A stretch of 64,000 nucleotides of DNA from a virus: positions 141,741 to 205,740 of IMG/VR virus record IMGVR_UViG_3300042465_005589; one strand, given 5' to 3'. Shown piece by piece: positions 1 through 64,000 of the stretch. Under the pieces are notes generated by a model. The model worked only from the letters and a program-made list of their open reading frames with translations. It was not told the origin of the DNA and did not search any database. Position numbers and translations under genes: made by a program. How positions within the stretch are numbered: position 1 is the stretch's first letter; each line of letters starts with the position of its first letter.

Positions 1-271
1 TCTTTAAAGTATTTGGTTGGATGGTAGCATCTTCAAAAGATTCTGTGGAAACAAACTCACTTTTCATATATTCAATTACGTGTTCAAACATTTCATAATC
101 TTTAAAATCACCTCGTTTGTGTCCAGCCTTCATTAATAATGACATACCCGCAGCCAACATCATTGTTGTTTGCTTGACTGATAATAATTCTTGGTCTTTT
201 GGGAATCCAATATCAAAATAGTTTCTCTTATCTTCTCGTCTCCAAGTTACTCCAACTGTTAAACTGTCCAT
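1..271 (-). CDS. Hypothetical protein, partial. The N-terminal 90 codons are in the window and the gene continues past the window start.
   Basis: Minus-strand ATG at 269-271 opens a frame that runs to position 1 with no stop (MDSLTVGVTWRREDKRNYFDIGFPKDQELLSVKQTTMMLAAGMSLLMKAGHKRGDFKDYEMFEHVIEYMK...). It is not in the ORF track because it has no stop codon. Confidence 0.45.
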   Translation of the reverse strand, partial: MDSLTVGVTWRREDKRNYFDIGFPKDQELLSVKQTTMMLAAGMSLLMKAGHKRGDFKDYEMFEHVIEYMKSEFVSTESFEDATIQPNTLK

Positions 272-276
272 AATTT

Positions 277-702
277 TTATATTTGAATTGGTAATAATCT
301 CTCAGGTAAGTATTGTTCCGGACATACGATGGTAACGCTTTCAATATAATACGGATACTTCAATAAGTAATCCATTGACATTTTAGAAGTATCTCTATAA
401 TTCAAAACTATATACGGAGTGGTTACTTTATTATCAATTTTGATTCTAACCTTTTCAAAATCAAATTGCATAAAACGATATTCCCCATTAACATCCCCCA
501 TAAGTTTTACAACTGTATTGGTTTCAGTATTTGAATTAACCGAACCGGCAATCAAAAAGAACGAACCCGATGTATGGGTTTGTGTGATATCCCGGTTAAC
601 CAACTGTCTTAAATAAATTTTATCACTATGTAAATCTTTATATTCAATTGGTTGACACCCAATCATAAACAACACCACTAATAACCCTAATACTTTTTTC
701 AT
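277..702 (-). CDS. Predicted lipoprotein. Start moved to the internal Met (MKKVLGLLVVLFMIGCQ...).
   Basis: Track ORF 277..750. The internal Met precedes a typical signal peptide and lipobox (FMIGC). A TATCTTTG -7-like motif lies about 19 nt upstream of this Met. Confidence 0.55.
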   Translation of the reverse strand: MKKVLGLLVVLFMIGCQPIEYKDLHSDKIYLRQLVNRDITQTHTSGSFFLIAGSVNSNTETNTVVKLMGDVNGEYRFMQFDFEKVRIKIDNKVTTPYIVLNYRDTSKMSMDYLLKYPYYIESVTIVCPEQYLPERLLPIQI

Positions 703-718
703 CTCTATTATTTTTTCA

Positions 719-745
719 CAAAGATACAAATAATATTTGAAACTA
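719..745 (-). promoter_or_regulatory. Copy of the conserved upstream motif (minus-strand reading ...TATTATTTGTATCTTTGTG...), which contains a TAnnTTTG -7-like element.
   Basis: About 19 nt upstream of the preferred start of 277..702. Confidence 0.45.
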
Positions 746-771
746 TCCAAAAAAAATATTATATTTGTTAT

Positions 772-2178
772 ATGAAAAATGCAATTAATTTATTAATGGA
801 AAAGTGGATTAAAGGTGTGGATACATATACCCACAATGGTTCTACTTGGTTAATATTTACCGATTCCAAAAAATGGGTAATTGAACTAACCGATTCTAAA
901 ACCCTATGGTATAACTACAACTTCTTCAAACAAATATTTGATTTCACTTCGTTGGATGTTGTGGAGAATCAATCATACATCACCAAATGGGTGGAAGATA
1001 ATATTATCAATGGGGTAAACCATACCGGAGCACCTGATTGGAATAGAGATAAGGTTGCCAAATATGCAATTGAAAATGGTGTGAAGAACACCAAACAATC
1101 ACATATAGATAACCGAATCCAAGAACGTGTTGAAGGTACCATTGAAAATGGGGTAAAGAAAACCAATTATAAATCTCTAGTGACAAGAGGTAATATTGAA
1201 GACATCATTGATGGCGGGGTTAAGGAAACTATTAGTACACTACGACGTACTCTTCTTGGGGTTGACGATATCATTCAAAATGGAATAAAAGAAACCCGTT
1301 TGGAAATGAACATTACTGAAGGAGAAGTTGATGACATCATTCAAGATGGGGTGAAACACACCTTTGGTGATAAGTGGCATAAGCATAATTTTGTTGAAGA
1401 CATAATTCAAAATGGTGTAAGAGATACACAGAGTAACCCGTATGAAAATACAAGTTGGATTGAAGGTGTTATTAAAAAAGGTGTAAAACTTACCGGACGC
1501 ATTCATAAAGATTATACTGAAGTTGTTGAATACCTTATTGAAAATGGTGTGAGGAAAACCTATCACGACACAGATAACTATACTGACGATGTGAAAGAAG
1601 TCATTAGAGAAGGTGTGAAAGAAACAAAGGAGATGTTGGATTGGGTTTGTACCGACCGAATGTTATCTAATGTTCTTGAAAATGGTGTGAGAACTTCCCA
1701 CCCACGTGCATATGTAGATGAAAAAATGATTGATAAGGTGATTGATAAGGGTGTAATAGAAACCCACGATGATGTATATCACCACAAAGGAAGAATTGAT
1801 GGTGTGATTAAGAATGGTATTAAAGAAACGTTGAAAGCATCATATCTTAATGTTGATGATGTAATTCAAGATGGTGTTAAAGAAACAAAAACACCCGGTG
1901 ATTGTGACCTTGTATCAACCATTGAATGGATGAATGAAAATAATACCAGTAATGTTCCCATAATGATTGATGATGTTATTGAGAATGGTGTTAAAGAAAC
2001 TGTGGCAGCCGGATGTGTTGACAAAAAGACGGGTATTTTTCATTATCGGATTCAAGAACAAGTTGATGATGTTGTTGACAATGGTGAAAAAGTTAACGGA
2101 ACTTACGCTGGCGGTCAACGTCAAAGTGAAAAATGTAAATCCGTTGTTGAATATGGAACAAAAAACCCCACCGATTAG
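772..2178 (+). CDS. Tandem-repeat protein with about 16 copies of a 22-24 aa unit (core [VI]xxIIxNGVKET). Possible surface or structural protein.
   Basis: Repeat units are visible in the translation (IENGVKNT, IENGVKKT, IIDGGVKET, IIQNGIKET, IIQDGVKHT, IIQNGVRDT, VIKKGVKLT, LIENGVRKT, VIREGVKET, VLENGVRTS, VIDKGVIET, VIKNGIKET, VIQDGVKET, VIENGVKET). A TATATTTG -7-like motif lies 6 nt upstream of the ATG. Confidence 0.7.
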   Translation: MKNAINLLMEKWIKGVDTYTHNGSTWLIFTDSKKWVIELTDSKTLWYNYNFFKQIFDFTSLDVVENQSYITKWVEDNIINGVNHTGAPDWNRDKVAKYAIENGVKNTKQSHIDNRIQERVEGTIENGVKKTNYKSLVTRGNIEDIIDGGVKETISTLRRTLLGVDDIIQNGIKETRLEMNITEGEVDDIIQDGVKHTFGDKWHKHNFVEDIIQNGVRDTQSNPYENTSWIEGVIKKGVKLTGRIHKDYTEVVEYLIENGVRKTYHDTDNYTDDVKEVIREGVKETKEMLDWVCTDRMLSNVLENGVRTSHPRAYVDEKMIDKVIDKGVIETHDDVYHHKGRIDGVIKNGIKETLKASYLNVDDVIQDGVKETKTPGDCDLVSTIEWMNENNTSNVPIMIDDVIENGVKETVAAGCVDKKTGIFHYRIQEQVDDVVDNGEKVNGTYAGGQRQSEKCKSVVEYGTKNPTD

Positions 2179-2192
2179 GATGGGGTTTTAAA

Positions 2193-2651
2193 TTATATTT
2201 CTTCTCCGAAAATATCATCGGTCCAATTCTCGGGAATCATTACAATAATATATCCTTGTCTAACTTCAATTAATGATTCCGGAACCACACCATTAAGTTG
2301 TTCCATTATTTCAGGTCGTTCTTTAAAAACAACTCTCAACTTACCATCAGGAGCAGTATCAACAACTTTGTGGTTAAACCCATCCATAATTTCCTTGAAT
2401 TTATCAAGTCCTCCGAAATCTTCAGATTCTTCAGAATCAATATCCAATTCACCACCCAAAAATCTTTCAGGTACATTACTCTCACCACCACTCTTTAAAT
2501 ATTTAATTTCTTCATCAGTCATACCCTCAAGTCCAACCTCATTATATAAATCTAAAATAATATCGTAGTAGTCATAATCAAATTGTTCATCCAAAAGTTT
2601 TAACACAATTTTTTTTAAATCCGATTCCGTTAATTTTATAATCTTTTTCAT
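2193..2651 (-). CDS. Hypothetical acidic protein with an N-terminus (MKKIIKLTESDLKKIV) related to the ITE family.
   Basis: 152-aa ORF that lies antisense between two plus-strand genes and has protein-like composition. Confidence 0.5.
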   Translation of the reverse strand: MKKIIKLTESDLKKIVLKLLDEQFDYDYYDIILDLYNEVGLEGMTDEEIKYLKSGGESNVPERFLGGELDIDSEESEDFGGLDKFKEIMDGFNHKVVDTAPDGKLRVVFKERPEIMEQLNGVVPESLIEVRQGYIIVMIPENWTDDIFGEEI

Positions 2652-2723
2652 ATCAATAAATATGCAAAAAAAATATTAAAAACAAAGGGGCGTTAATTTT
2701 AAATCTATTAAGTATTTATAGAT

Positions 2724-4310
2724 ATGTCAAATATCATAAAATATAATTTAAGTACATCACCAAATTCAATACAATCAGGTAATTTTAATGTTGCTGTTAA
2801 TAATACTCCAACAAATTTAACCGGATTTTATAACGGAATTTCCCCAATAAATGGGGGTTACACCATTTACATTAATAAAGAGTCTAATGGACCATCCATT
2901 TACGTCCCACAAAATGATAGTGATTTAATTCAAATAGTTAAACAATTGGGGGGTAATGTTTCAACTGCAGCGGAAGCTTTGGTTTGGATTAATTCTCAAA
3001 GTAATATGACGGTTCTAAATAATAATTACCCCTCAATTGTAACCAGTGGACTTGTATTAAATGTAGATGCAGGATTTGTATCTTCATACCCAAAAACCGG
3101 AACAACTTGGAAAGATTTGAGCGGTGGTGGAAATAACGGTACTTTAGTTAATGGACCAACTTATAGTAGTGGGAGTATAGTTTTTGATGGCGCGGATGAT
3201 AGAGTTCAGACAACATATTCTCCAAATTTTGGGGATTTTACAGTTTGTCTTATTTTTAAAGATAATGGTTCAAATGCTTGGGGGAGATTAGTAGATAAAT
3301 TATATACTACAGGTTTTTTCATTTCAAGCTATTTTGCATCATCAGGCGCTAATTACGTAGGCGCCGGAATAATAGAGCCTAATTATCCTTACGGAATAGC
3401 ACTTCCTTATGAATCAGGAAAGTATCACTATTTCGCCTCAGTTAGAAACGGAACAACTCATACAATCTACCTAGATGGTATTACCCAAACCACAAGCAAA
3501 ACAGTATCTTCTAATCTTCTAGATAGTACTTCTATCGCCTTTGGGGATTGGAGCGGGGGGGTAAGTCAACCTTTTAAAGGTGATTTACCATATGTTCAAA
3601 TTTACAACAGAGCACTCTCAGCCGCTGAGGTTCTACAAAACTATTACGCAGGACTACAAAGATTTATACCAACAGACGGATTAGTACTTTCATTAGATGC
3701 TCAAAATACAAATTTATATGCAATCTCTCCAACCACAGCATACGATGTGAGTGGGAATAATATAAATGGTACATTAACAAATGGTGTTCAATATGTTGGT
3801 GATGGAAATGGTTCATGGAGATTTGACGGGGTTGATGATGTGATAACATTAGGTTATCAACCATTATTAAATAATACTGATATAACACAGGAAGCTTGGG
3901 TTAATGGAAATTCTTTTACGAGTTGGCACGGAATTATTTCAAACATGCCTTCTTGGGGGACAGGGTTTAGTTTACAAATTGGTATAATACAAAATATTGC
4001 GGCAATGGTTAGTGGGACTTATTTGAAAACTTCTTGGGCGCCCTCTGTAAATGTTTGGTATCACATTGTGGCAACACATAGAAGTAGTGATAATTTCACT
4101 GCATTATATGTTAATGGTGTTTTAGAAAATACAACAACGCAAGCGGTAACTTATTCTGAAAATGCGATAACAACAATAGGGGTTTTTTATACTTCAGGGT
4201 CATTACCATTTAATGGTGAGATTGGGTCTGTTAAAACATACAACAGAGCATTAACGGCAACAGAAGTAACAACAATATATAACGCAACTAAATCAAGATA
4301 CGGATTATAA
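2724..4310 (+). CDS. Protein with two tandem LamG-like (Laminin_G_3 / concanavalin-like) domains. Candidate receptor-binding or tail-fibre-associated protein.
   Basis: Two repeated modules. The first runs W-KDLSGGGNNGTLVNGPTYSS...FDGADDRV and ends ...YNRALSAAEVLQNYY. The second runs YDVSGNNINGTLTNGVQYVGDG...FDGVDDVI and ends ...YNRALTATEVTTIYN. These are characteristic Laminin_G_3 motifs. Confidence 0.65.
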   Translation: MSNIIKYNLSTSPNSIQSGNFNVAVNNTPTNLTGFYNGISPINGGYTIYINKESNGPSIYVPQNDSDLIQIVKQLGGNVSTAAEALVWINSQSNMTVLNNNYPSIVTSGLVLNVDAGFVSSYPKTGTTWKDLSGGGNNGTLVNGPTYSSGSIVFDGADDRVQTTYSPNFGDFTVCLIFKDNGSNAWGRLVDKLYTTGFFISSYFASSGANYVGAGIIEPNYPYGIALPYESGKYHYFASVRNGTTHTIYLDGITQTTSKTVSSNLLDSTSIAFGDWSGGVSQPFKGDLPYVQIYNRALSAAEVLQNYYAGLQRFIPTDGLVLSLDAQNTNLYAISPTTAYDVSGNNINGTLTNGVQYVGDGNGSWRFDGVDDVITLGYQPLLNNTDITQEAWVNGNSFTSWHGIISNMPSWGTGFSLQIGIIQNIAAMVSGTYLKTSWAPSVNVWYHIVATHRSSDNFTALYVNGVLENTTTQAVTYSENAITTIGVFYTSGSLPFNGEIGSVKTYNRALTATEVTTIYNATKSRYGL

Positions 4311-4576
4311 TGGAAATACAAGAATACGACAACAGAGAATTTATGATTTTTAATGTTAATGAATTATCTAACATTAATTTTGAAGAGGTTTTAGAAACCT
4401 CAATTGACACGGTTAGAAAATCGGTTGACCTAACAAAAACATTTGTTAAATGGGATGGTGTGATGCCAATATGTGTGTCAGATTTAACGACAAAAGAAGG
4501 TCCTTATACATATGATGAGATATTACAAATTCTATCAACACCTGAATGGACTATGCCAATGCCGGATATGTTATAA
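4310..4576 (+). CDS. Hypothetical protein, translationally coupled to the upstream gene through a TAATG overlap.
   Basis: 88-aa ORF whose ATG overlaps the stop codon of 2724..4310. Confidence 0.5.
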   Translation: MEIQEYDNREFMIFNVNELSNINFEEVLETSIDTVRKSVDLTKTFVKWDGVMPICVSDLTTKEGPYTYDEILQILSTPEWTMPMPDML

Positions 4577-4582
4577 TTTATA

Positions 4583-4900
4583 TTACACACATTCCTTATC
4601 GTAAATACCTTGTAGATAATCGGCAAAATTATCTACCATAAAATAATACAAAGTATCTTTGGTTTTAGAATCAATCTTTCCGCCGTTTTCATAATAGTAA
4701 TCATCAATTAAATCCAATACCAGCATATCACACATTTCACCAATAAAATCACCCAAACTTCCATAATCACAAGGATTATAATTCTGTATAACAAAATCTA
4801 AATGACCTTTAATTTCGTCATAATTAAACCTTCTACGAAGTGATGCCGGGATATTCTCCATTAACAAGTTATGCTGTCTTTCAGTGATTATAATTTTCAT
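4583..4900 (-). CDS. Hypothetical protein of the ITE N-terminal family (MKIIITERQHNLL...).
   Basis: Conserved N-terminal MKIIITE peptide. Its stop and the downstream start overlap as ATGA. Confidence 0.6.
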   Translation of the reverse strand: MKIIITERQHNLLMENIPASLRRRFNYDEIKGHLDFVIQNYNPCDYGSLGDFIGEMCDMLVLDLIDDYYYENGGKIDSKTKDTLYYFMVDNFADYLQGIYDKECV

Positions 4901-5259
4901 TCCTCAACAAATTCCTCAATTAATTTATTCAAACTTATTCCCAACATATCAAGACCAAGTATTTTTAAAAAATTATTTTCGCTAATTTTACGATTGTGAG
5001 ATTCACTTAAAACTAAGGTACCATATTCTTTACCTTGAGGGTGAAGATAATAATTATTTCCATTAACCTTAAACAAATACATTGGACCATAATTATTAAG
5101 TAACCACCTAAACTCATCTCTACCATCAGTAAACAAGTTTTGACCTTTAGGACCTAATTCAATCCAATTTGTAATTATTTCAATATTGTCGGATAAGTTA
5201 TAACCCAATATATTATTGATTAACCCTTTTAATCTGTTTTCTGTTATTATTATTTTCAT
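4897..5259 (-). CDS. Hypothetical protein of the ITE family and paralog of 10259..10633. Start moved to the internal MKIIITENRL.
   Basis: Track ORF 4897..5286. About 45% identity to 10259..10633 (NNILGYNLSDNIEIITNW vs NNTLGYDLSDTIEMITNYW; LGLDMLGISL...EEFVEE vs MGIDMFGIPL...DNFVKEE). Confidence 0.65.
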   Translation of the reverse strand: MKIIITENRLKGLINNILGYNLSDNIEIITNWIELGPKGQNLFTDGRDEFRWLLNNYGPMYLFKVNGNNYYLHPQGKEYGTLVLSESHNRKISENNFLKILGLDMLGISLNKLIEEFVEE

Positions 5260-5600
5260 AATTCTTCCTCCACTCTTTTCCACCACCAGGGGTTATCGTC
5301 TCTCGCCGAAACATTATTTGAATGTAAACCATATTCCTCCAATAACCATTTTTTTAATATTGTTTGAACATCAGAAAAATCTAATCCAAATATTTTGGTT
5401 AACCCACTCCATATATTAAACACATCAACATACACATTAGTGTTTGTTAAATGATAGTCAATCATTACCTTACCGTCTTTAACATAGAAAAGACGAGTTG
5501 GGTTGGATTCGCTTGTAACCGAAGGTAACCCTCCAAATTTATCGGTCAACCATTTTAGGACCAATCTATGTAATCTATCTTCAGTAATTATCATTCTCAT
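5256..5600 (-). CDS. Hypothetical protein of the ITE family (MRMIITEDRLHRLV...).
   Basis: 114-aa ORF with the conserved N-terminal peptide, tightly packed with its neighbours. Confidence 0.6.
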   Translation of the reverse strand: MRMIITEDRLHRLVLKWLTDKFGGLPSVTSESNPTRLFYVKDGKVMIDYHLTNTNVYVDVFNIWSGLTKIFGLDFSDVQTILKKWLLEEYGLHSNNVSARDDNPWWWKRVEEEL

Positions 5601-5601
5601 A

Positions 5602-5919
5602 TTAATTTAATCTTCTAGTAAAAAAAGTTGATTTTAATGCTGACGGTTCATTAAATTTAATTGAAACATATTCTTTACAGATATCCACCAAATCAGGTAT
5701 AGACATCCCTAACATATTTTTAGCGGTATAAAAATCATCGTAGTCAAATCGTATTGATTCTTGTTTGGTATCATATTCAAAAGCGGTACGACCATTATCA
5801 TCCATATATTCATATAGAACGTGAGGATACCCCATACGTATCGGTCGTCTCCCGTGTTTCTCATAACCCCTAAAGGTCATATCAAAATATTTAAAGATGA
5901 GTTCTTTCTTTCTGTTCAT
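5602..5919 (-). CDS. Hypothetical protein.
   Basis: 105-aa ORF spaced 2 nt from the upstream gene. Confidence 0.55.
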   Translation of the reverse strand: MNRKKELIFKYFDMTFRGYEKHGRRPIRMGYPHVLYEYMDDNGRTAFEYDTKQESIRFDYDDFYTAKNMLGMSIPDLVDICKEYVSIKFNEPSALKSTFFTRRLN

Positions 5920-5930
5920 AATTAACTACT

Positions 5931-6335
5931 CTAATTTAATCCGGAACAACGTCCACCTTTACACGGGGACTTAGGACCATTATCTCCAGCCCAAAAAGTT
6001 CTTTCTCCTTTAGGTTCAGGATTTTCAGCAGCGTTCTTTTTTGTTCTATCATCAAATTCTTTATACCATTGGTCAAAAGTTTGTCCGGGTTTTTTATACT
6101 TTTCGTAAGATTTTGTCCAAACAAGTTTATTTCGTTCTTTCTTTAAAGAATCTTTAATAGCAAATGCTTTAGCCCGTTCTTGACGTAGAGCCTCCGCTTT
6201 TTCTTTATTAAGTTCAATTTGTTTTAATCTTTGTTGTTGAGGTGTTAAAACGGTAGTTGTCCCCCCACTAGTTACCGGAGGAGTGGTTTGTTCAATCAAA
6301 AAATTATACTGTGATTCTGTAATTAATATCTTCAT
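5931..6335 (-). CDS. Hypothetical Lys-rich protein of the ITE family (MKILITESQYNFLIEQ...).
   Basis: 134-aa ORF with the conserved N-terminus and a basic, coiled-coil-like middle region. Confidence 0.55.
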   Translation of the reverse strand: MKILITESQYNFLIEQTTPPVTSGGTTTVLTPQQQRLKQIELNKEKAEALRQERAKAFAIKDSLKKERNKLVWTKSYEKYKKPGQTFDQWYKEFDDRTKKNAAENPEPKGERTFWAGDNGPKSPCKGGRCSGLN

Positions 6336-6347
6336 ACAAATAAATAT

Positions 6348-6373
6348 CCCCCAACACCGAAATAAAAGGGGGG
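6348..6373 (-). terminator. Hairpin (CCCCC...GGGGGG) downstream of the stop of gene 6379..7416.
   Basis: GC stem in an AT-rich context, with the TTAA/T-rich flank seen in the rest of this terminator family. Confidence 0.4.
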
Positions 6374-6378
6374 TTAAA

Positions 6379-7416
6379 TTAATCTACGTTAGTTATTTCG
6401 GTGGGGTGCTCTGTAAATACAGCAGAATTAAAACTGTGGGTATAATTTTTATTATCAAATTCCAACATTTTATTTGGATTAACAAATAATATTTTATCAA
6501 CCAATGATTTTCCCTTATAATCTCTCATACCATAAGTTTTAATGAAAAAAGGACCTTCTTTTTTACCGGCATACGAGACCAATGGTTTAATTTGATAGTT
6601 TATACCATCAATAGTAGCATCAACCCCTTCATATCTATCCATTATAGAACCCGATGGATAAAATGTAGTATTACTACCTTTTTTTAATATTTTAGCCAAT
6701 TCTTCACTTTTATATCCATTCTCAATGGATTGCCATTGACGTTCAACTAAAGGTTCAATAAAAGATGGATTATCTCTAAGTTCATTAGCCAACCAATTAA
6801 CAATATCCAAATCACTGTCCGATTTAGAGTATCTTTTGTTTATCAGTTCCTGAATTTCTTTTTTGGTATCAAAATAATTTAAAATAGACCAATCATCTTC
6901 ATTACCCAATTTTTCACCAATGGTATAGACACCTCTCACACCAGCAGAAAATATGTTATCTTGATAGTTCCATTTACCCGGACCATCATTATCCGGTGGG
7001 AACGCCAATTCCAAAGCCTTACGAATTTGATAAGATGTTATCTCCTGTTTAATATTGGTTTTAGAATCATCAAGTAAATTGAATAATATGTTATAGTATT
7101 TCCTATCCTTATAATATAATTCATCACTAAAAATAAATGGAACTCCTCCCTTATATCTAATATCATTTTTATCCAATTCAAATACCCCGTTAGGACCTCT
7201 AAAGATTACAAATTGAGGTTCGTTTGGTTTTTTATAATCCGATTTTCCAAATTCAGTACCATTAAAAAATGCAATAAATTTTTTAGGGTATTTTTTATCA
7301 GGAACAACACCGATTGATTTATACTCATATTCAGGATTCTCATCCGAATAATCAAACGCACGATTAACCTCACTAACTAATACTTTATATTGTCGTTCTT
7401 TTATTAATATATTCAT
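6379..7416 (-). CDS. Hypothetical protein (345 aa) with an ITE-like N-terminus (MNILIKERQYKVLV).
   Basis: Long ORF. A hairpin terminator (6348-6373) follows its stop and an intergenic repeat copy lies upstream. Confidence 0.65.
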   Translation of the reverse strand: MNILIKERQYKVLVSEVNRAFDYSDENPEYEYKSIGVVPDKKYPKKFIAFFNGTEFGKSDYKKPNEPQFVIFRGPNGVFELDKNDIRYKGGVPFIFSDELYYKDRKYYNILFNLLDDSKTNIKQEITSYQIRKALELAFPPDNDGPGKWNYQDNIFSAGVRGVYTIGEKLGNEDDWSILNYFDTKKEIQELINKRYSKSDSDLDIVNWLANELRDNPSFIEPLVERQWQSIENGYKSEELAKILKKGSNTTFYPSGSIMDRYEGVDATIDGINYQIKPLVSYAGKKEGPFFIKTYGMRDYKGKSLVDKILFVNPNKMLEFDNKNYTHSFNSAVFTEHPTEITNVD

Positions 7417-7437
7417 AATAATAAATATCTATGTTTT

Positions 7438-7508
7438 CAAAAAAAGGGGCGGGGGGATTTTAATTCGACCGGAGGAAGATTGGGTGGGGAATAACGTTAC
7501 CACCAACC
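7438..7508. repeat. Intergenic repeat copy A (AAAAAAAGGGGCGGGGGGATTTTAATTCGACCGGAGGAAGATTGGGTGGGG...).
   Basis: It shares the AAAAAAGGGGGCGGGGGGATT head with copies B and C. It sits directly upstream, on the coding strand, of gene 6379..7416. Confidence 0.55.
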
Positions 7509-7627
7509 TTTAAATTTTCCATTTAAGAAAACTGTACCCACAATGGGTATTAATATTCGTAGAACTAATAGACCCAAACATATAAAACCTATGGTCTCCA
7601 AAAAATTATATTTCCAAATTATCTCCA

Positions 7628-8458
7628 TTACTTATTTAAATATTCTTTATACTCTTTCTCTAACACTTCTCTACTATCCGTTAAATAATCATTTTTAGAT
7701 AACCAATCAAATAACCACCTTGTTTGGTAATGAAATACATTATTATAAACTTTCTCTTCTCTAATTCTAAATCTCTCATTACTCTCCTCAACAAACTTAC
7801 TTGGTTCCTTAGATACAATCTTTTCCAACTTCTCACTAAGGGTTTCTACTTTACCAAAATATTTCTTTGGAACCATAAGTGGTCTAACTATTTCGTCCTT
7901 AACCTCAATACCCACCTTAGTTATGTACCCATAATCAACTCCAGTACAGTCATTACAATTTTCACACTGAAAACTACATTGTTCTCCGTAGTCAACCTCA
8001 TCACCACAATAGAAATTCTTTATTGGAAGAATGATTTTGTAAAATGAAGATTCATAAAATTCCATTGCCCCATCATAATGACCTCCTGTTCTATATATCT
8101 CAACTTCCTCACATCTTTGATTCTTCACAAACCACTTAAGGAACTCATCACTAATTTCCTGAACACCATCTTTTTGAAGGTCTAAGTCTGTTGTTAATAT
8201 CACTTTGTTTTTAAAATTACCTTCATCTCTTGGTCTTGCTTGAAACACACTTCCTTCATATACATAATAGTCTTTATCATATACGCCTTCTTCATCATTA
8301 GTGATGTACAAATTATGTGTAGATTTAATGTCTGTATGATACTTTGGAAACTCACATAGTTGATATGTTCTTTCTTGGCTATTGTAATATAGCCTACTTG
8401 TGTGTTCCGTTGGTAATACGTGTATGTTTTTCATTTTATTTCTTTTTAAATTGTTCAA
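7628..8458 (-). CDS. Hypothetical protein with a Cys-rich C-terminus, tandem paralog of 8436..9116.
   Basis: It shares a roughly 110-aa N-terminal domain (YDKDYYVYEGSVFQARPRDEGNFKNKVILTTD...) at about 85% identity with the neighbouring gene. The DNA blocks 8187-8299 and 8861-8973 are nearly identical. Confidence 0.65.
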   Translation of the reverse strand: MNNLKRNKMKNIHVLPTEHTSRLYYNSQERTYQLCEFPKYHTDIKSTHNLYITNDEEGVYDKDYYVYEGSVFQARPRDEGNFKNKVILTTDLDLQKDGVQEISDEFLKWFVKNQRCEEVEIYRTGGHYDGAMEFYESSFYKIILPIKNFYCGDEVDYGEQCSFQCENCNDCTGVDYGYITKVGIEVKDEIVRPLMVPKKYFGKVETLSEKLEKIVSKEPSKFVEESNERFRIREEKVYNNVFHYQTRWLFDWLSKNDYLTDSREVLEKEYKEYLNK

Positions 8459-9965: not shown

Positions 9966-10256
9966 TTAATAAAGTTCCTGGTAATTACGATAATAATCAA
10001 TCCTATTACCAAAATTTTTTCTAATTAAATCAGTTACATAAACTTTCTGTCCTAATGTTAAATCCTGTCTATCCGTTAAGTCGGAAATAACACGACGAAC
10101 AACCTCATCAAAATAATCATCACGATAATAAAATCTGGATACAATTGTAGGTTCACCCATAGAAACCAAATACTTGTCAACAAGTTTTCTGATAAGGTCA
10201 ATTCTTCTCTTAAACCATATGTTATTAAATTGATTCTCTGTAATTATTATTTTCAT
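9966..10256 (-). CDS. Hypothetical protein of the ITE family (MKIIITENQFNNIW...).
   Basis: Conserved N-terminus. An intrinsic terminator follows the stop at 9941-9965. Confidence 0.6.
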   Translation of the reverse strand: MKIIITENQFNNIWFKRRIDLIRKLVDKYLVSMGEPTIVSRFYYRDDYFDEVVRRVISDLTDRQDLTLGQKVYVTDLIRKNFGNRIDYYRNYQELY

Positions 10257-19097: not shown

Positions 19098-19483
19098 ATA
19101 TAATCATTAGTTATTTGAGCAACATTTAATCCTGTGTTTTCTTCAAACCATTCCTTAAATACCGGTAACCATCTATCACCAAATAAAGATGTTAGTTCTT
19201 GACCAACTCTCGGATATATAGATAGTAAAGGACATTTATAATTATGTAAGTGACCATAACCAGCAAAGAATTCATCTTCCGGACCAGCATTTGCGTTACA
19301 CCCATAGTAAATGTAGCTATCAGCATCATCTATAAAGAAAACAATATCACCCCACTTATCAACATCTCTTTGATATGAACCGTGTCTTGTATTTTCATTC
19401 CACCCATAATCCGGATAAAATTCTTTGTCTAAATACTTACGTATAATCTGATTAACTTTATTTTCTGATATAATTACTTTCAT
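19094..19483 (-). CDS. Hypothetical protein of the ITE family (MKVIISENKVNQII...).
   Basis: 129-aa ORF whose start and stop overlap with its neighbours. Confidence 0.6.
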   Translation of the reverse strand: MKVIISENKVNQIIRKYLDKEFYPDYGWNENTRHGSYQRDVDKWGDIVFFIDDADSYIYYGCNANAGPEDEFFAGYGHLHNYKCPLLSIYPRVGQELTSLFGDRWLPVFKEWFEENTGLNVAQITNDYI

Positions 19484-20091
19484 TCTTTTATAATTCTAAA
19501 TCTCAATAATGGTTTACCATTAATTGTGATGTCACCTTTATCATTTTTTTCTATTGTCTTAACAATAACTTTTTTGTTTTTAAATTTACCCCCCATTAGA
19601 GTATCACCAACTTTAATATCTAACTTAATCATTTCACTTAATGTTAATTCTTCTTCATCATGATGATTCCAAGTATCACCACCTGTTCCTTTGTATATTA
19701 ATCTAACGGCATTCGCCGGAATATCCCCAAAGGTAACGATATGTTTAGTATCACCACCCTCAAAATGAGCGTCTTTATACCATTGCACACCAGCTCTTTC
19801 AGTATCAATCACCCATATGTCATCATCATAAGTTGAATCAAACATATCTTTCTTCTTTAAACTATCTGTTGCAAACACAGCAGGAATACATTCTTCATCT
19901 TCACCATAATTACTATCGGCATAAATCAAATAACATTCCCCCAAAGATACCTGAAGACCTGTAGTTGAAATATTATCTCTATTTGATGGATTTGATGAAT
20001 GAACAATAAATCTTCCGGGAGTAATCTCTTCCCCCTTCACTCGTTGTTCTTGTAGTTTTCTATATTGTGTTTCTGTTATAATTACTTTCAT
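19480..20091 (-). CDS. Hypothetical protein of the ITE family (MKVIITETQYRKLQ...).
   Basis: 203-aa ORF. Confidence 0.6.
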   Translation of the reverse strand: MKVIITETQYRKLQEQRVKGEEITPGRFIVHSSNPSNRDNISTTGLQVSLGECYLIYADSNYGEDEECIPAVFATDSLKKKDMFDSTYDDDIWVIDTERAGVQWYKDAHFEGGDTKHIVTFGDIPANAVRLIYKGTGGDTWNHHDEEELTLSEMIKLDIKVGDTLMGGKFKNKKVIVKTIEKNDKGDITINGKPLLRFRIIKE

Positions 20092-20399
20092 TAGTCCCTT
20101 ACCATTTTAACTTCCATACCCCAACTTGCACCATATGTATTAATATAAAGACCAAACATTGAATTAATATCATTTCTTATTTGTCTAGCCATATAACTTG
20201 GACTATGTGTCATCTTACCATCAATGAAGTCAATGTTTAGTATATTTCTAACAATATCATTCTCACCTTTTTCATTTGGTTCACCGGCTAAACGAATTAA
20301 CTTTGTTGTAAAAAACACCCTTTTAACCATAGGATATCCTTTAAGAATATATTTCTCAATTGAACTATTTAACCTATTTTCTGTGATTATTACTTTCAT
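20091..20399 (-). CDS. Hypothetical protein of the ITE family (MKVIITENRLNSSI...).
   Basis: 102-aa ORF. Confidence 0.6.
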   Translation of the reverse strand: MKVIITENRLNSSIEKYILKGYPMVKRVFFTTKLIRLAGEPNEKGENDIVRNILNIDFIDGKMTHSPSYMARQIRNDINSMFGLYINTYGASWGMEVKMVRD

Positions 20400-24154: not shown

Positions 24155-24376
24155 TGATATTAGTACTTATCTTTGTTGTGTTTTGGTTTTCGATTGTAAG
24201 CTTTTTTACTTTTTTGAACAGATGGACGAGATGCTGCCCATATTTCTTGCATTGTGAAGGTAATTGTTTTCATAGTTTCTGTATGTGTTAAGGTTATTGT
24301 TTCATTTTGACAAGACAAAAGTAATTCTTTTAATCGAATTATACAAGTATTTATTAAAATATTTATATTTATTATT

Positions 24377-24862
24377 ATGAAAGAATTAATTAGACGGATA
24401 TTAAGAGAATATACAGAACCAAAACCTATTTTAGTATACGAAATTGTTGTAAACGATATTTTAAGTGAACAAGAGTTTATTAGACAAATATATAGAAATA
24501 ACGACAATTTAATTAATTTATATAAAAACCCACATTCTCAGGAATTCATAGGAAATAAAACCTCATTTCAAAGAGTTGACCCAGATGAGATTAACGATTC
24601 AATAATGGATATTGAACCGGCAATAATCAGTTCAGCTAAAAGAGTAATGGAAACATGTATTACAAGATGTTCAATTAATGTTATCGATAATATAGCAGGA
24701 ATTGATTACCACATGTGGTTAAATGGAACAAATAATAGGATTAAAATAATAATTAACACATCAATCAGACATCCCAACCATCTAAAATTTAGAGTTAATG
24801 AATCTCCAACAATAATAGTGGATAGGTACGGTGACATATCAACAAGAAACATATATAATTAA
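24377..24862 (+). CDS. Hypothetical protein of the MKELIRRILRE N-terminal family.
   Basis: Its N-terminus MKELIRRILREYTE is near-identical to MKELIRRILREEQEG of the minus-strand gene 41152..42072. A hairpin terminator follows it. Confidence 0.6.
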   Translation: MKELIRRILREYTEPKPILVYEIVVNDILSEQEFIRQIYRNNDNLINLYKNPHSQEFIGNKTSFQRVDPDEINDSIMDIEPAIISSAKRVMETCITRCSINVIDNIAGIDYHMWLNGTNNRIKIIINTSIRHPNHLKFRVNESPTIIVDRYGDISTRNIYN

Positions 24863-36286: not shown

Positions 36287-36307
36287 TAATAAACTATATT
36301 TATAATT

Positions 36308-38374: not shown

Positions 38375-38905
38375 TTAATTCATTTGGAAATATCGACTAG
38401 AGTATTTAGGTCTGTCAAAAATAATGTTTATACCTGTCTGTGATGTAATGTTGTCCTTAAAATAATCATTGATACCCCAATTAACTTCATCTTCAACTTC
38501 CCATCCGTAATCATCATTGTCTAAAGCATCCTCTAATGTCTTGTGGTCACCACCTACATCAACATGACCACCCAAATCATCAACCTTAATTTTAACAACA
38601 ACATTTGGTTCTGAGCTATCTAAATACCAATTACCAATACCAATAACCTCAAAGAAAAAATTATAACCACCAAAATTATCTATATGGTGTGGGTTCTGAA
38701 GTAATAAGGTTTTAGCAAGTTCTTTCGATTCTTTTTCACCTCTCCACTCAATTAAGTATTTGTAGGCTTGGTTATAAGTAATGTCACTATCACTATTATC
38801 TAACCCAAAAAAAGAAATGAAATTCTTATCTACCTTACCAGCTGTTTTGTCCCAATACTTAAAAAGTATATTTTTGTATTTAGATTCAGTTATTATTAAT
38901 TTCAT
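38375..38905 (-). CDS. Hypothetical protein of the ITE family (MKLIITESKYKNIL...).
   Basis: 176-aa ORF. Confidence 0.6.
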   Translation of the reverse strand: MKLIITESKYKNILFKYWDKTAGKVDKNFISFFGLDNSDSDITYNQAYKYLIEWRGEKESKELAKTLLLQNPHHIDNFGGYNFFFEVIGIGNWYLDSSEPNVVVKIKVDDLGGHVDVGGDHKTLEDALDNDDYGWEVEDEVNWGINDYFKDNITSQTGINIIFDRPKYSSRYFQMN

Positions 38906-39306: not shown

Positions 39307-39328
39307 CATATTTATAATAAAAAGATTT

Positions 39329-42535: not shown

Positions 42536-42577
42536 AATAAAGTTTTACATATAAATATATCGTTTAATTGTAATTTA

Positions 42578-48197: not shown

Positions 48198-48240
48198 AAT
48201 AAATCTTTTAGTTATAAATATACCGAAAATAAAAAAGAGG

Positions 48241-58003: not shown

Positions 58004-58076
58004 TTTAATTGTTTTTATTATAAATATTTGTTTTTTCTAAATAATTCGCCAAAACCCATTTACTTTTGTTCAGCGG

Positions 58077-63945: not shown

Positions 63946-64000
63946 TGTTGTTTTTTTATTATAAATATATTAGTTTTTTACTTTATTTGTTTGATTTTAA

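Follow-up and report, generated by a model that had tools for sequence, protein, structure and literature searches.

Two putative plus-strand units, a modular repeat-protein gene and a LamG gene pair, in a proposed jumbo phage genome

Do the plus-strand genes at the start of this window (the whole 64,000-nt stretch of viral DNA that was analysed, from IMG/VR record IMGVR_UViG_3300042465_005589) form a single host-interaction cassette, as the first-pass annotation proposed, or do they belong to separate units? Three plus-strand open reading frames (ORFs) are present as annotated (772-2178, 2724-4310, and 4310-4576), encoding a tandem-repeat protein, a protein with LamG domains, and a small protein, respectively. 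With more than 1,458 homologues of the repeat protein, 1,909 of the LamG protein, and 7,038 of the small protein, these are genes and not chance ORFs. The claim that the first 35 kb have no other sizeable plus-strand genes essentially holds, as the remaining plus-strand ORFs of at least 100 aa are nested in longer minus-strand ORFs, the possible exception being 24377-24862 (161 aa), which may be a genuine gene. The idea of one repeat-plus-LamG module had to be abandoned: a minus-strand gene separates the two and thus divides the region into two transcription units, their upstream motifs belong to different classes, and in none of 76 related IMG/VR loci does a homologue of the LamG or small gene lie within 5 kb of the repeat gene. 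The repeat-gene loci L003, L005, and L006 likewise lack such homologues nearby. The intervening gene has homologues in relatives (65-81% identity), and its placement relative to the repeat gene differs among them. The region therefore very probably comprises two independent, separately controlled units (Table 1). Unit 1 (736-2189) would be a monocistronic repeat gene and unit 2 (2713-4576) a two-gene operon, the two being mutually unrelated. Taken together with the roles proposed below, this is the explanation that we favour, with slightly better than even confidence.

Table 1. Positions of the genes, protein regions, and putative control elements of the locus within the window.
Feature	Position	Strand	Remark
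Sigma-A-type promoter-like site, lipoprotein-like gene 277-702	719..751	-	TTTG-N-TAnnTTTG
Bacteroidota sigma-A-type promoter-like site, repeat gene	736..767	+	Motif match, conserved geometry
Repeat protein, N-terminal domain (aa 1-75)	772..996	+	Nearly invariant in family
Repeat array (aa 71-438), 14-16 units	982..2085	+	12-residue core plus unit-specific linker
C-terminal tail NGEK.NGTYAGGQRQSEKCKSVVEYGTKNPTD and stop codon	2086..2178	+	Family consensus
Bidirectional terminator-like hairpin	2162..2189	.	G+C-rich, flanked by A-tract and T-tract
Intervening gene (152 aa)	2193..2651	-	Belongs to neither unit
TATTTATA box	2713..2720	+	3 nt 5' of LamG start codon
Double Laminin_G_3 protein (528 aa)	2724..4310	+	Pfam and PHROG matches
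Small acidic partner (88 aa, pI 4.05)	4310..4576	+	Start overlaps LamG stop

The source is proposed to be a jumbo phage of ~320 kb, with both units in an accessory, non-structural arm of its genome. The gene content of the window includes methyltransferases, thioredoxin, DnaJ, NUDIX, endonuclease VII, and kinases, and family scans of the 64,000 nt reported no structural genes. The host probably belongs to the Bacteroidota, to judge from the TAnnTTTG sigma-A -7 box (PMC9723704), the scarcity of SD-like motifs (before 4 of 72 starts vs. 7.9 at random), and the A at -3 (47 of the 72 starts), the latter two features agreeing with PMC6847099.

The two units differ in their putative control elements. 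The repeat gene would be transcribed from a host sigma-A-type promoter into a leaderless mRNA that is closed by a bidirectional terminator. In the promoter-like site, the -33 TTTG lies at 736-739 and the -7 box TATATTTG at 760-767; in Bacteroidota, the sigma-A -7 box TAnnTTTG spans -12 to -5 (PMC9723704). The box ends only 4 nt 5' of the ATG at 772, hence the prediction of a leaderless mRNA. This geometry is kept in L003, L005, and L006 and in 19 of 41 distinct upstream contexts, and the TTTG-N17-21-TAnnTTTG motif is enriched in the window (20 sites vs. 4.15 expected). As the same promoter type also serves the ClpP operon and many other genes, it is uninformative on timing. The site overlaps, back-to-back, with that of the lipoprotein-like gene, and L005 has the same divergent pair. 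At the other end, where the convergent intervening gene lies opposite, the terminator-like hairpin overlaps the repeat gene's stop codon; it has a folding energy of -15.7 kcal/mol (z -3.4), an equally good fold was found in none of 200 shuffles, and its sequence is kept in L003, L006, and several IMG/VR loci. The LamG gene is preceded by a second upstream motif class, TATTTATA, which may be either a promoter or a translation-initiation signal. This box occurs at most 40 nt upstream of 12 gene starts (0.7 expected) and is kept upstream of the LamG homologues in L009, L014, and L013.

The LamG protein does contain the two Laminin_G_3 domains ascribed to it (PF13385, E 2.6e-33, 115.8 bits vs. a cut-off of 27.6, in two stretches), and both YNRAL(S/T)AxEV signatures were found, as IYNRALSAAEV and TYNRALTATEV. 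Its full-length homologues have the same precomputed Pfam match. LamG1 occupies ~aa 121-319 of the protein and LamG2 aa 368-515; the region at the N-terminus (aa 1-155) and a linker (aa 286-362) are conserved. Identity to the L009 homologue, segment by segment, is 82% (the N-terminal 155 aa), 20%, 75%, 26%, and 91%; the LamG cores (20% and 26%) are thus hypervariable inside conserved frames (75-91%). In the L013 and L014 homologues, a fibrinogen-like domain takes the place of LamG2. The protein fits a receptor-binding-type layout, in which the N-terminal anchor is conserved and the C-terminal binding domains vary or can be swapped. Support for the suggested role in the virion or in host interaction comes from homologues annotated as structural (S-PM2 and Flavobacterium phage immuto) and from the one in S-SKS1, which has tail-fibre and baseplate genes as neighbours. 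The S-SKS1, immuto, and L008 homologues lie in a tail or baseplate region; no such module is recognisable around the LamG gene of the window, the neighbours of which are small minus-strand genes.

The small coupled gene noted downstream proved to be a real and conserved partner. Its start overlaps the LamG stop codon by one base (TAATG, 4308-4312), suggesting translational coupling. Its homologues share ~80% identity, and partner identity is ~89% where LamG identity is ~52%. A small-gene homologue follows a LamG-type gene in the four metagenomic loci L008, L009, L013, and L014 and in S-SKS1, directly so in L009, L008, and S-SKS1, as in the window with its 1-nt overlap, and with an extra 84-aa ORF in between in L013 and L014. 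In immuto, a small-gene homologue lies near LamG genes, and a LamG homologue near tail-fibre genes. Membership of a known chaperone family is not supported, as 26 members of the partner family had no PHROG match, a profile had no PDB match, and the window protein alone had no Pfam or PHROG match. Unit 2 would encode a lectin-type double-LamG protein, anchored by its conserved N-terminal part and hypervariable in its cores, coupled to an 88-aa partner, in a pair that appears to move between genome positions. The most likely role of the partner is that of an assembly factor or adaptor for a virion-borne, glycan-binding accessory or receptor-binding LamG protein. We consider it probable that the pair forms a virion lectin or receptor-binding unit.

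The product of unit 1 is of a different kind. The protein (468 aa, ORF 772-2178) is acidic, with a GRAVY of -0.7 and 32% charged residues, and the ~16 imperfect repeats seen at first are confirmed as 14-16 units of ~22 aa with the core [VI][ED]D[TVI]IxNGVK[EH]T. A strict regex counts 13 cores, a unit HMM trained on eight of the protein's own units detects 16, and one trained on 385 family units detects 14 (domain E<=0.1). Spacing is mostly 22 aa, changing to 24, 19, 38, 32, and 36 aa near the C-terminus. Positions 3-14 of the unit logo are conserved and the others variable, with 0.3-0.8 bits at positions 15-22. Among 57 sequences, many columns of the N-terminal domain are at least 90% conserved; its predicted topology is helix, four strands, helix, and no fold match for it was found. 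It is the only part with AlphaFold2 pLDDT values of ~76-82. The solenoid expected for the array did not appear in two AlphaFold2 monomer runs (pLDDT 44.9 and 38.3, from shallow alignments of 57 and 20 rows); the array was modelled at pLDDT 30-45, with an isolated short helix at every core. Each unit may begin with a short capped helix (xVEDxIxNG), continue with GVK(E/H)T, and end in a unit-specific loop; this "capped helix plus loop" is inferred from low-confidence secondary structure and the sequence pattern. The C-terminal tail corresponds to linker type 1, which 65 of 121 proteins have.

The repeat protein comes from an unannotated family with more than 1,400 metagenomic members and has no match in PHROG, Pfam, or cultured phages; no tie was found to support its supposed place in the virion or effect on host range. 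In the first-pass annotation, such repeats were regarded as hotspots of copy-number variation. Unit number does vary, ranging from 4 to 27 in the family, and the near-identical variant P0001 (a 2.5-kb contig) is exactly two units shorter, being identical over aa 1-348 and the last 35 aa. This is the only close variant that documents strain-level unit loss, and the deletion falls at the cores with the most similar DNA; an assembly error is possible but unlikely given that there are no DNA-level repeats. The variation is, however, not of the slippage type, and a slippage-type contingency locus was rejected: TRF found no tandem repeat in the gene, the cores have a mean DNA identity of 65% with a longest common exact word of 16 nt, and the units are anciently diverged, single-copy, and fixed in order. 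We distinguished 284 linker types, of which each of the 29 common ones occurs once per protein. Their order consistency is 0.968 (162 of 205 type pairs are in invariable order). Of 1,592 unit types, only 7 occur as duplicates in the same protein. Each type retains at least 60% identity across proteins with only 40-50% overall identity. Each genome would carry, in fixed order, a subset of ancient unit types that number ~30 or more. Such subsets would change as whole units are lost or replaced, apparently by recombination between conserved core sequences. The repeat protein evolves much faster than its neighbours, being 36-45% identical among relatives vs. 70-97% for the flanking genes.

These features lead us to picture the repeat protein as non-enzymatic, elongated, and modular, with an almost invariant N-terminal alpha/beta domain that may serve for docking, unit-specific loops as the presumed working surfaces of a multi-site adaptor, and a conserved C-terminal tail at its end. 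The partner tracked by such an adaptor would change fast and be either the surface of the host or one of its defences. We give this diversifying multi-site adaptor, proposed from sequence features, an even chance of being correct. A location inside the cell and one in the virion are nearly equally probable, each at somewhat under even confidence and the former marginally ahead; what remains falls to a capsid-internal or other location.

Since AlphaFold2 yielded no confident fold, the function of the repeat protein can only be inferred, and other readings need to be weighed. Its best PDB profile match is Crov588 of Cafeteria roenbergensis virus (6nyr, E 3.7e-13), which raises the question of whether the array is a very divergent, Crov588-like FNIP/FGxxFN LRR solenoid that acts as an intracellular scaffold for protein-protein interactions. 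The FNIP period equals the commonest core-to-core spacing in the family (22 aa, 572 of 1,599), the unit segment DDIIQNGVKET aligns locally with ENVLPNSLTHL of Crov588, and the linkers show a twofold enrichment of His and a weak Tyr at position 19, to be compared with the His/Tyr ladder of Crov588 (PMC9525666). However, of the LxxLxF strand, the FGxxFN double-Phe spine that follows it, and the Asn ladder at position 12 that characterise these LRRs (PMC9525666), none is present: logo positions 15-22 contain no conserved F, G, or N, and the only Asn that is conserved (logo position 9, preceding Gly) is aligned to FNIP positions that vary. AlphaFold2 did not build a solenoid, none of 57 family members has an FNIP or LRR Pfam match at E<=0.01, and the same array profile also matches designed armadillo repeats (E ~1e-5), indicating that it partly detects a generic helix-Gly-hydrophobic periodicity. 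We regard an FNIP-type solenoid as decidedly improbable. The low pLDDT of the array with a short helix per core, the GRAVY, and the charged residues would also suit a largely disordered multivalent sponge or decoy, each 12-residue helix binding a single copy of an abundant host or defence protein, and the host-type promoter, leaderless mRNA, and accessory-gene neighbourhood are in line with this. Yet the linkers are not free spacers, given their identity within types and fixed order, and the hydrophobic fraction of the array (0.31) is compatible with a folded protein, making a sponge quite unlikely.

Two further readings give the repeat protein a fibre or a capsid role. In the one-cassette reading, both proteins would be virion parts determining host range, the repeat protein as a fibre shaft (probably an obligate trimer) whose unit number tunes reach or host range, and the LamG protein as its tip or an accessory adhesin. 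Both genes are on the plus strand amid minus-strand genes, the repeat protein has a fibre-like layout with conserved termini and a middle of variable length, near-identical strains differ by unit loss, and the protein outpaces its neighbours in evolution. AlphaFold2 often models intertwined trimeric fibres poorly when given the monomer, and the weak models obtained here (pLDDT 45 and 38) are compatible with such a trimer. Against this stand the missing linkage in the 76 related loci and in L003, L005, and L006, the different upstream signals and the gene in between, the lack of PHROG, Pfam, and cultured-phage matches, tips that are conserved and not variable, and a core pattern (hydrophobic i, i+3, i+4; acidic N-terminus; NG cap) that suggests a helix, unlike beta-rich fibre shafts. 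We therefore consider a joint cassette unlikely. The other reading is a capsid-internal scaffold or core protein cut by a T4-like prohead protease at [VI]-K-E|T. T4 gp21 cleaves after L/I-x-E, which the recurrent V/I-K-E of the core resembles (E in 48% of units), and the protein is acidic and helix-prone. In addition, 6-8 kb upstream of the gene in L001, L003, L005, and L006, the same strand carries an operon for a ClpP-family protease, and a prohead core protease is a core gene of the candidate phage lineage (PMC12619734). However, the putative P1 position is not always E, capsid genes are not adjacent, the loss of units between strains and the rapid divergence would be atypical of a scaffold, and a folded, invariant N-terminal domain would be unexpected, so that this role seems highly improbable.

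Comparison with known systems puts the preferred reading of two units, an adaptor gene and a lectin-type pair, into perspective. The fibre shafts of phages and adenoviruses are built from modular repeats that form a beta-spiral or beta-helix. The repeat protein shares with them its conserved ends and a middle of short units whose number varies among relatives, but its core looks helical and there is no homology. Crov588 is likewise viral, with many tandem 22-residue units, a local resemblance over ~11 residues, and no assigned function in either protein; FNIP/FGxxFN units are near-identical, whereas those of the repeat protein are individually distinct. For the LamG protein, the closest counterparts are S-PM2p176, SWZG_00005 of S-SKS1, and gp220/221 of immuto, which belong to the same PF13385 family (28-34% identity over ~80% of the query), share the YNRAL-type strand closing each domain, and are annotated as structural proteins. 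In the cyanophage S-SKS1, the gene right after LamG encodes a homologue of the small partner (56.6% identity), with tail-fibre and baseplate genes alongside. Unlike these aquatic-phage relatives, the window pair stands alone as a two-gene operon within a non-structural region and runs opposite to its neighbours, and its LamG protein is shorter (528 aa vs. ~960-1,060 aa for S-PM2p176 and SWZG_00005). Finally, tail-fibre assembly and chaperone genes of the T4 gp38/gp57 and lambda Tfa types follow receptor-binding genes. Although the 88-aa partner has no sequence match to a PHROG family or PDB chain, its arrangement may be analogous to theirs, with a small, coupled, and far more conserved gene immediately 3' of a variable receptor-binding-type gene.

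The repeat gene and the LamG operon are two units and not the single host-interaction cassette that the first-pass annotation had proposed. Synteny settles this question: none of 76 IMG/VR loci (5-kb flanks) has a LamG or small-protein homologue beside the repeat gene, and in three related loci (L003, L005, and L006) it stands alone on the plus strand, close to ClpP and DUF5872 and with no LamG neighbour. In the window, a minus-strand gene for a 152-aa protein sits between the two units, and each has its own upstream signals. The repeat gene is preceded by a promoter-like site with the sigma-A-type motif TTTG-N17-21-TAnnTTTG, found at 20 sites in the window versus 4.15 expected (0 of 100 shuffles reached 20), of which TAnnTTTG is the flavobacterial sigma-A -7 box (PMC9723704). 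This box stops 4 nt 5' of the ATG, and as it covers positions -12 to -5 (PMC9723704), transcription is predicted to begin at the A of ATG 772, which would yield a leaderless mRNA. The geometry recurs in three distant relatives and, among 41 distinct upstream contexts, in 19. A sub-lineage of repeat-gene relatives without the sigma-A-type box (L022, L031, L034, L053, L068, L069, L072, and L073) has a conserved element, TTGTATTACCCAAAnAGTTTAGAnA, directly before the ATG instead. The sigma-A-type promoters of the repeat gene and of a minus-strand lipoprotein-like gene (MKKVLGLLVVLFMIGC...) overlap in a back-to-back arrangement, a divergent pair also present in L005. At the 3' end, a hairpin (-15.7 kcal/mol, z -3.4) overlaps the repeat-gene stop codon, has an A-tract and a T-tract at its sides, and is kept in relatives; it resembles a terminator that acts in both directions between the two convergent genes. 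The final repeat-gene codons (K-N-P-T-D-stop) form its 5' arm and loop, and therefore conservation of the C-terminal peptide may partly mirror RNA structure.

The sigma-A-type motif is absent before the LamG operon, and no intrinsic terminator was found 3' of the small gene. Instead, TATTTATA lies 3 nt 5' of the LamG ATG. In gene orientation, this box precedes 12 start codons by 3-27 nt (40-nt upstream span; 0.7 expected), whereas its reverse, TATAAATA, precedes only 3 starts. It is preserved before the LamG homologues of the metagenomic loci L009, L014, and L013, and may mark either a class of promoters specific to the phage or a signal for translation initiation. Genes of this class, which include those for a LysM and a Dps-like protein, mostly have no known function and are therefore uninformative on timing; the ClpP operon, too, is under a sigma-A-type motif, and neither of the two signals can therefore tell early from late expression. 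The 14-mer CAAAAAAAATATTA, upstream of both units, was rejected as a common regulatory site since it is not enriched (15 matches versus 11.3 expected, up to 2 mismatches); its first copy is part of the A-rich promoter spacer and its second has no adjoining -7 box. A T4-type late promoter, TATAAATA, is missing in gene orientation before the two units. The leaderless sigma-A-type promoter geometry and the TATTTATA class are regulatory signals usable for this phage group, and with transcript data would let genes be sorted into expression classes.

Positions of the genes, signals, and related loci discussed in the text (window coordinates unless a locus is named)
Feature	Position	Strand	Remark
Lipoprotein-like gene	277-702	-	
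Its promoter-like site	719-751	-	
Repeat-gene promoter-like site	736-767		
CAAAAAAAATATTA copies	748; 2665		
Repeat gene	772-2178	+	468 aa
Final repeat-gene codons	2155-2178		
Putative terminator hairpin	2162-2189		
Intervening gene	2193-2651	-	leader variant
TATTTATA before LamG gene	2713-2720	+	
LamG gene	2724-4310	+	528 aa
Small partner gene	4310-4576	+	88 aa
Leader ORF	4583-4900	-	
Leader ORF	4897-5286	-	internal start
Leader ORF	5256-5600	-	
Leader ORF	5931-6335	-	
Leader ORF	6379-7416	-	
Leader ORF	9966-10256	-	
Leader ORF	19480-20091	-	
Leader ORF	20091-20399	-	
Leader ORF	38375-38905	-	
Other TATTTATA sites (examples)	24360-24367; 36297-36304; 39309-39316; 42550-42557; 48213-48220; 58019-58026; 63960-63967		
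LamG cluster	L008 2-10320		
LamG locus	L009 8001-9898		
LamG locus	L014 3073-5258		
Repeat-protein paralogues	L024 1162-4578		
Repeat-protein paralogues	L026/L027 1939-3000 and 4962-6077		
Repeat-protein paralogues	L066 4956-6918		

The three plus-strand ORFs called in the first-pass annotation exist and are real genes whose families are large, counting >1,458 (repeat protein), 1,909 (LamG protein), and 7,038 homologues (88-aa protein). The two domains proposed for the LamG protein correspond to two Laminin_G_3 stretches (115.8 bits, cut-off 27.6), both copies of the YNRAL(S/T)AxEV motif are present, and the small gene is indeed coupled, overlapping the LamG stop by 1 base (TAATG). The proposed ~16 repeat units agree with the 16 recovered by an HMM built from eight of the protein's own units, but an HMM from 385 family units gives 14 (domain E<=0.1) and a strict pattern 13 cores, the number differing because of the counting method. 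Unit spacing is mostly 22 aa, and longer or irregular near the C-terminus (24, 19, 38, 32, and 36 aa). Repetition is confined to the protein level: TRF finds no DNA-level tandem array in the gene, and the 36-nt cores have a mean DNA identity of 65%, with a longest common exact word of 16 nt.

The repeat family is undescribed. The repeat protein has no Pfam or PHROG match, and a search for bacterial or prophage homologues in one genome each from 185,579 prokaryotic species found none. A nearly invariant N-terminal domain (aa 1-75) is followed by the array and a conserved C-terminal tail. In the logo of 385 unique units, positions 3-14 are conserved ([VI][ED]D[TVI]I[QEK]NGVK[EH]T) and the other 10 are variable, with a weak Tyr at 19. 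The core, acidic at its N-terminus and with an NG end, places hydrophobic residues at i, i+3, and i+4 and is read as a putative short capped helix; the secondary structure assigned at low confidence by each of two AlphaFold2 runs agrees with this. These runs gave no fold for the repeat protein (pLDDT 44.9 and 38.3), and a fold search with the low-confidence model returned nothing at E<=0.001 in PDB or BFVD; the N-terminal domain alone reaches a pLDDT of ~80 and has no fold match. A by-eye likeness of this domain to the product of the leader ORF at 5256-5600 was not supported in comparisons with the small minus-strand neighbours (HMM E 0.09, no BLAST match). Likenesses noted by eye between the core and WH2, helix-hairpin-helix, or EF-hand motifs lack Pfam support, as does the Bacteroidota glycosylation sequon D-[ST]-[AILVMT], which is not conserved in the query, a protein without a signal peptide. 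A DUF445 match (25.5 bits, under the 33.8 cut-off, in only 5 of 57 members) was treated as compositional.

The nearest known repeat is that of Crov588, a giant-virus FNIP/FGxxFN leucine-rich-repeat protein (PMC9525666), which was the best match in a PDB profile search (E 3.7e-13). Both have a 22-residue period, and there is local likeness between DDIIQNGVKET here and ENVLPNSLTHL in Crov588. FNIP repeats are defined by an LxxLxF strand, an FGxxFN double-Phe spine, and a shifted Asn ladder (PMC9525666), all three of which are missing from the repeat logo, and no repeat-family member matches FNIP or LRR Pfam models. The same profile also matches designed armadillo repeats (~1e-5), so part of the Crov588 signal is generic periodicity. 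The protein was not filed under FNIP, and true distant homology to FNIP proteins appears improbable.

In 121 proteins of this family, 1,599 units fall into 284 linker types, and each of the 29 common types occurs once per protein (within-protein duplicates, 7 of 1,592 unit types). Their order has a mean pairwise consistency of 0.968 and is invariably the same for 162 of 205 type pairs. Linkers are therefore not free spacers, and, with unit types being single-copy and in fixed order, proteins differ in which units they carry. Unit number does vary among relatives, as the first-pass annotation anticipated (4 to 27 in the family), but, given this arrangement and the absence of a DNA array, the variation is not of the slippage type, and the proposed tie of the repeat protein to host range is a hypothesis. 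One close variant, identical at aa 1-348 and in the last 35 aa, lacks two whole units and has one linker replaced, the deletions coinciding with the cores most alike in DNA. Within the same set of related genomes, identity is 95-97% for ClpP, 92-95% for a 123-aa neighbour, 70-87% for other neighbours, and only 36-45% for the repeat protein. Two repeat-protein paralogues, in tandem or close together, occur in several loci (L024, L026/L027, and L066). Whole-unit turnover and fast divergence mark this orphan family as a probable host interface, and its unit repertoire could act as a strain marker.

The LamG operon adds a new member to an already known kind of unit. A homologue of the 88-aa protein lies 3' of or near LamG-type genes in all contexts examined, and the best 120 of its 7,038 homologues are ~76-100% identical. 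The small gene directly follows the LamG gene in L009 (partner 89% identical, LamG ~52%), lies 3' of a LamG gene within a LamG-gene cluster in L008, and in L013 and L014 lies 3' of a gene for a LamG + fibrinogen-like protein with an extra 84-aa ORF between. In the cultured cyanophage S-SKS1, SWZG_00005 then 00004 adjoin tail-fibre and baseplate wedge genes, and in Flavobacterium phage immuto the homologue is near LamG genes in the tail-fibre region; the window copy of the LamG gene sits outside any tail module. The small partner matches no PHROG family or PDB entry, and the copy of it encoded in the window has no Pfam match. Compared to L009, the LamG protein is a mosaic, with 82% identity in the N-terminal 155 aa, 20% in the first LamG core, 75% in the inter-domain linker, 26% in the second core, and 91% at the C-terminal end. 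This combination of a conserved anchor, hypervariable binding cores, lectin modules that can be exchanged, and a coupled partner that is itself conserved usually marks phage virion proteins that bind receptors or glycans and come with an assembly factor, and the LamG protein and its partner probably represent such a pair; here the first-pass suggestion of host interaction remains the best-supported reading. The pair moves together across phage families as a candidate receptor-binding unit and could aid host or glycan-target prediction.

The L009 and L014 loci have neighbours in common (NT5C, cREC_REC, Metallophos, AAA_33, and T4 RNA ligase), and show a clean domain swap in the protein encoded ahead of the small gene: LamG+LamG in L009, LamG+fibrinogen-like in L014. 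A tRNA-like GGTTCGAATCC motif is found just 5' of the L009 LamG gene. In L008, five LamG-containing genes (224 to 1,166 aa) cluster with two small genes, and several have TATAAATA-like boxes, resembling the T4 late promoter, right before the ATG.

In sum, the repeat gene appears to be transcribed on its own, its ends are conserved, its collinear and individually conserved units turn over as wholes, and it diverges faster than neighbouring genes. Functionally, the N-terminal domain would dock the protein to a conserved partner, the unit-specific loops would be binding surfaces, and host surfaces or a host defence would exert diversifying pressure on the loop repertoire. The protein may act as an intracellular adaptor or decoy or, with only slightly lower probability, as a virion appendage; there is also a small chance that it is internal to the capsid and cleaved at [VI]-K-E sites. 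A bolder reading, rather unlikely as a whole, is that the NGVK(E/H)T array represents a new structural repeat class, distinct from LRR/FNIP and from the fibre repeats known so far, in which ~30 or more units, each conserved individually, would form a combinatorial binding surface; the repeat gene is the fastest-evolving gene locally in a widespread jumbo-phage clade with probable Bacteroidota hosts. As a separate part of this reading, the 88-aa protein, which is unannotated and ~80% identical to its 7,038 homologues, would be a general assembly factor or adaptor of lectin-type receptor-binding proteins in unrelated aquatic phages. No current idea is overturned; the value lies in the annotation and a well-defined experimental target.

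At least nine minus-strand ORFs start with the same leader, MK[IVL]IITE.[QR]..[LI], with no similarity beyond about residue 15, and this leader is thus an N-terminal tag common to unrelated proteins. In T4, the prohead protease cleaves at L/I-x-E and internal proteins carry capsid-targeting sequences. The leader's I-T-E resembles these signals, and by this likeness the leader-bearing proteins could be packaged or processed.

The exact LamG protein is present on contigs of up to 318 kb, and repeat-protein homologues on contigs of 200-332 kb. No matches to cultured phages were found in INPHARED, either by megablast of positions 1-8000 or by tblastn of the repeat protein. The window has a G+C content of 25-35% and no tRNA genes, and encodes DNA methyltransferases, thioredoxins, a full DnaJ, NUDIX, endonuclease VII, and nucleotide kinases; family scans of the window reported no capsid, portal, terminase, or tail genes, and the window is therefore read as a jumbo-phage accessory arm. 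SD-like tetramers precede 4 of 72 starts (7.9 at random positions), and A is at -3 in 47 of 72, fitting the SD-less, Kozak-like initiation described for Flavobacterium johnsoniae (PMC6847099). From these sequence features we infer a member of the Bacteroidota as host. Bacteroidota jumbo phages are frequent in metagenomes, and nearly all of their genes lack annotation. Among recently described groups, the freshwater 'moraphages', with genomes of up to 307 kb, predicted hosts in the Bacteroidota, and both DnaJ/DnaK and T4-like core genes (PMC12619734), are a candidate lineage for the window genome, which is compatible with their profile in its full DnaJ, size, and inferred host.
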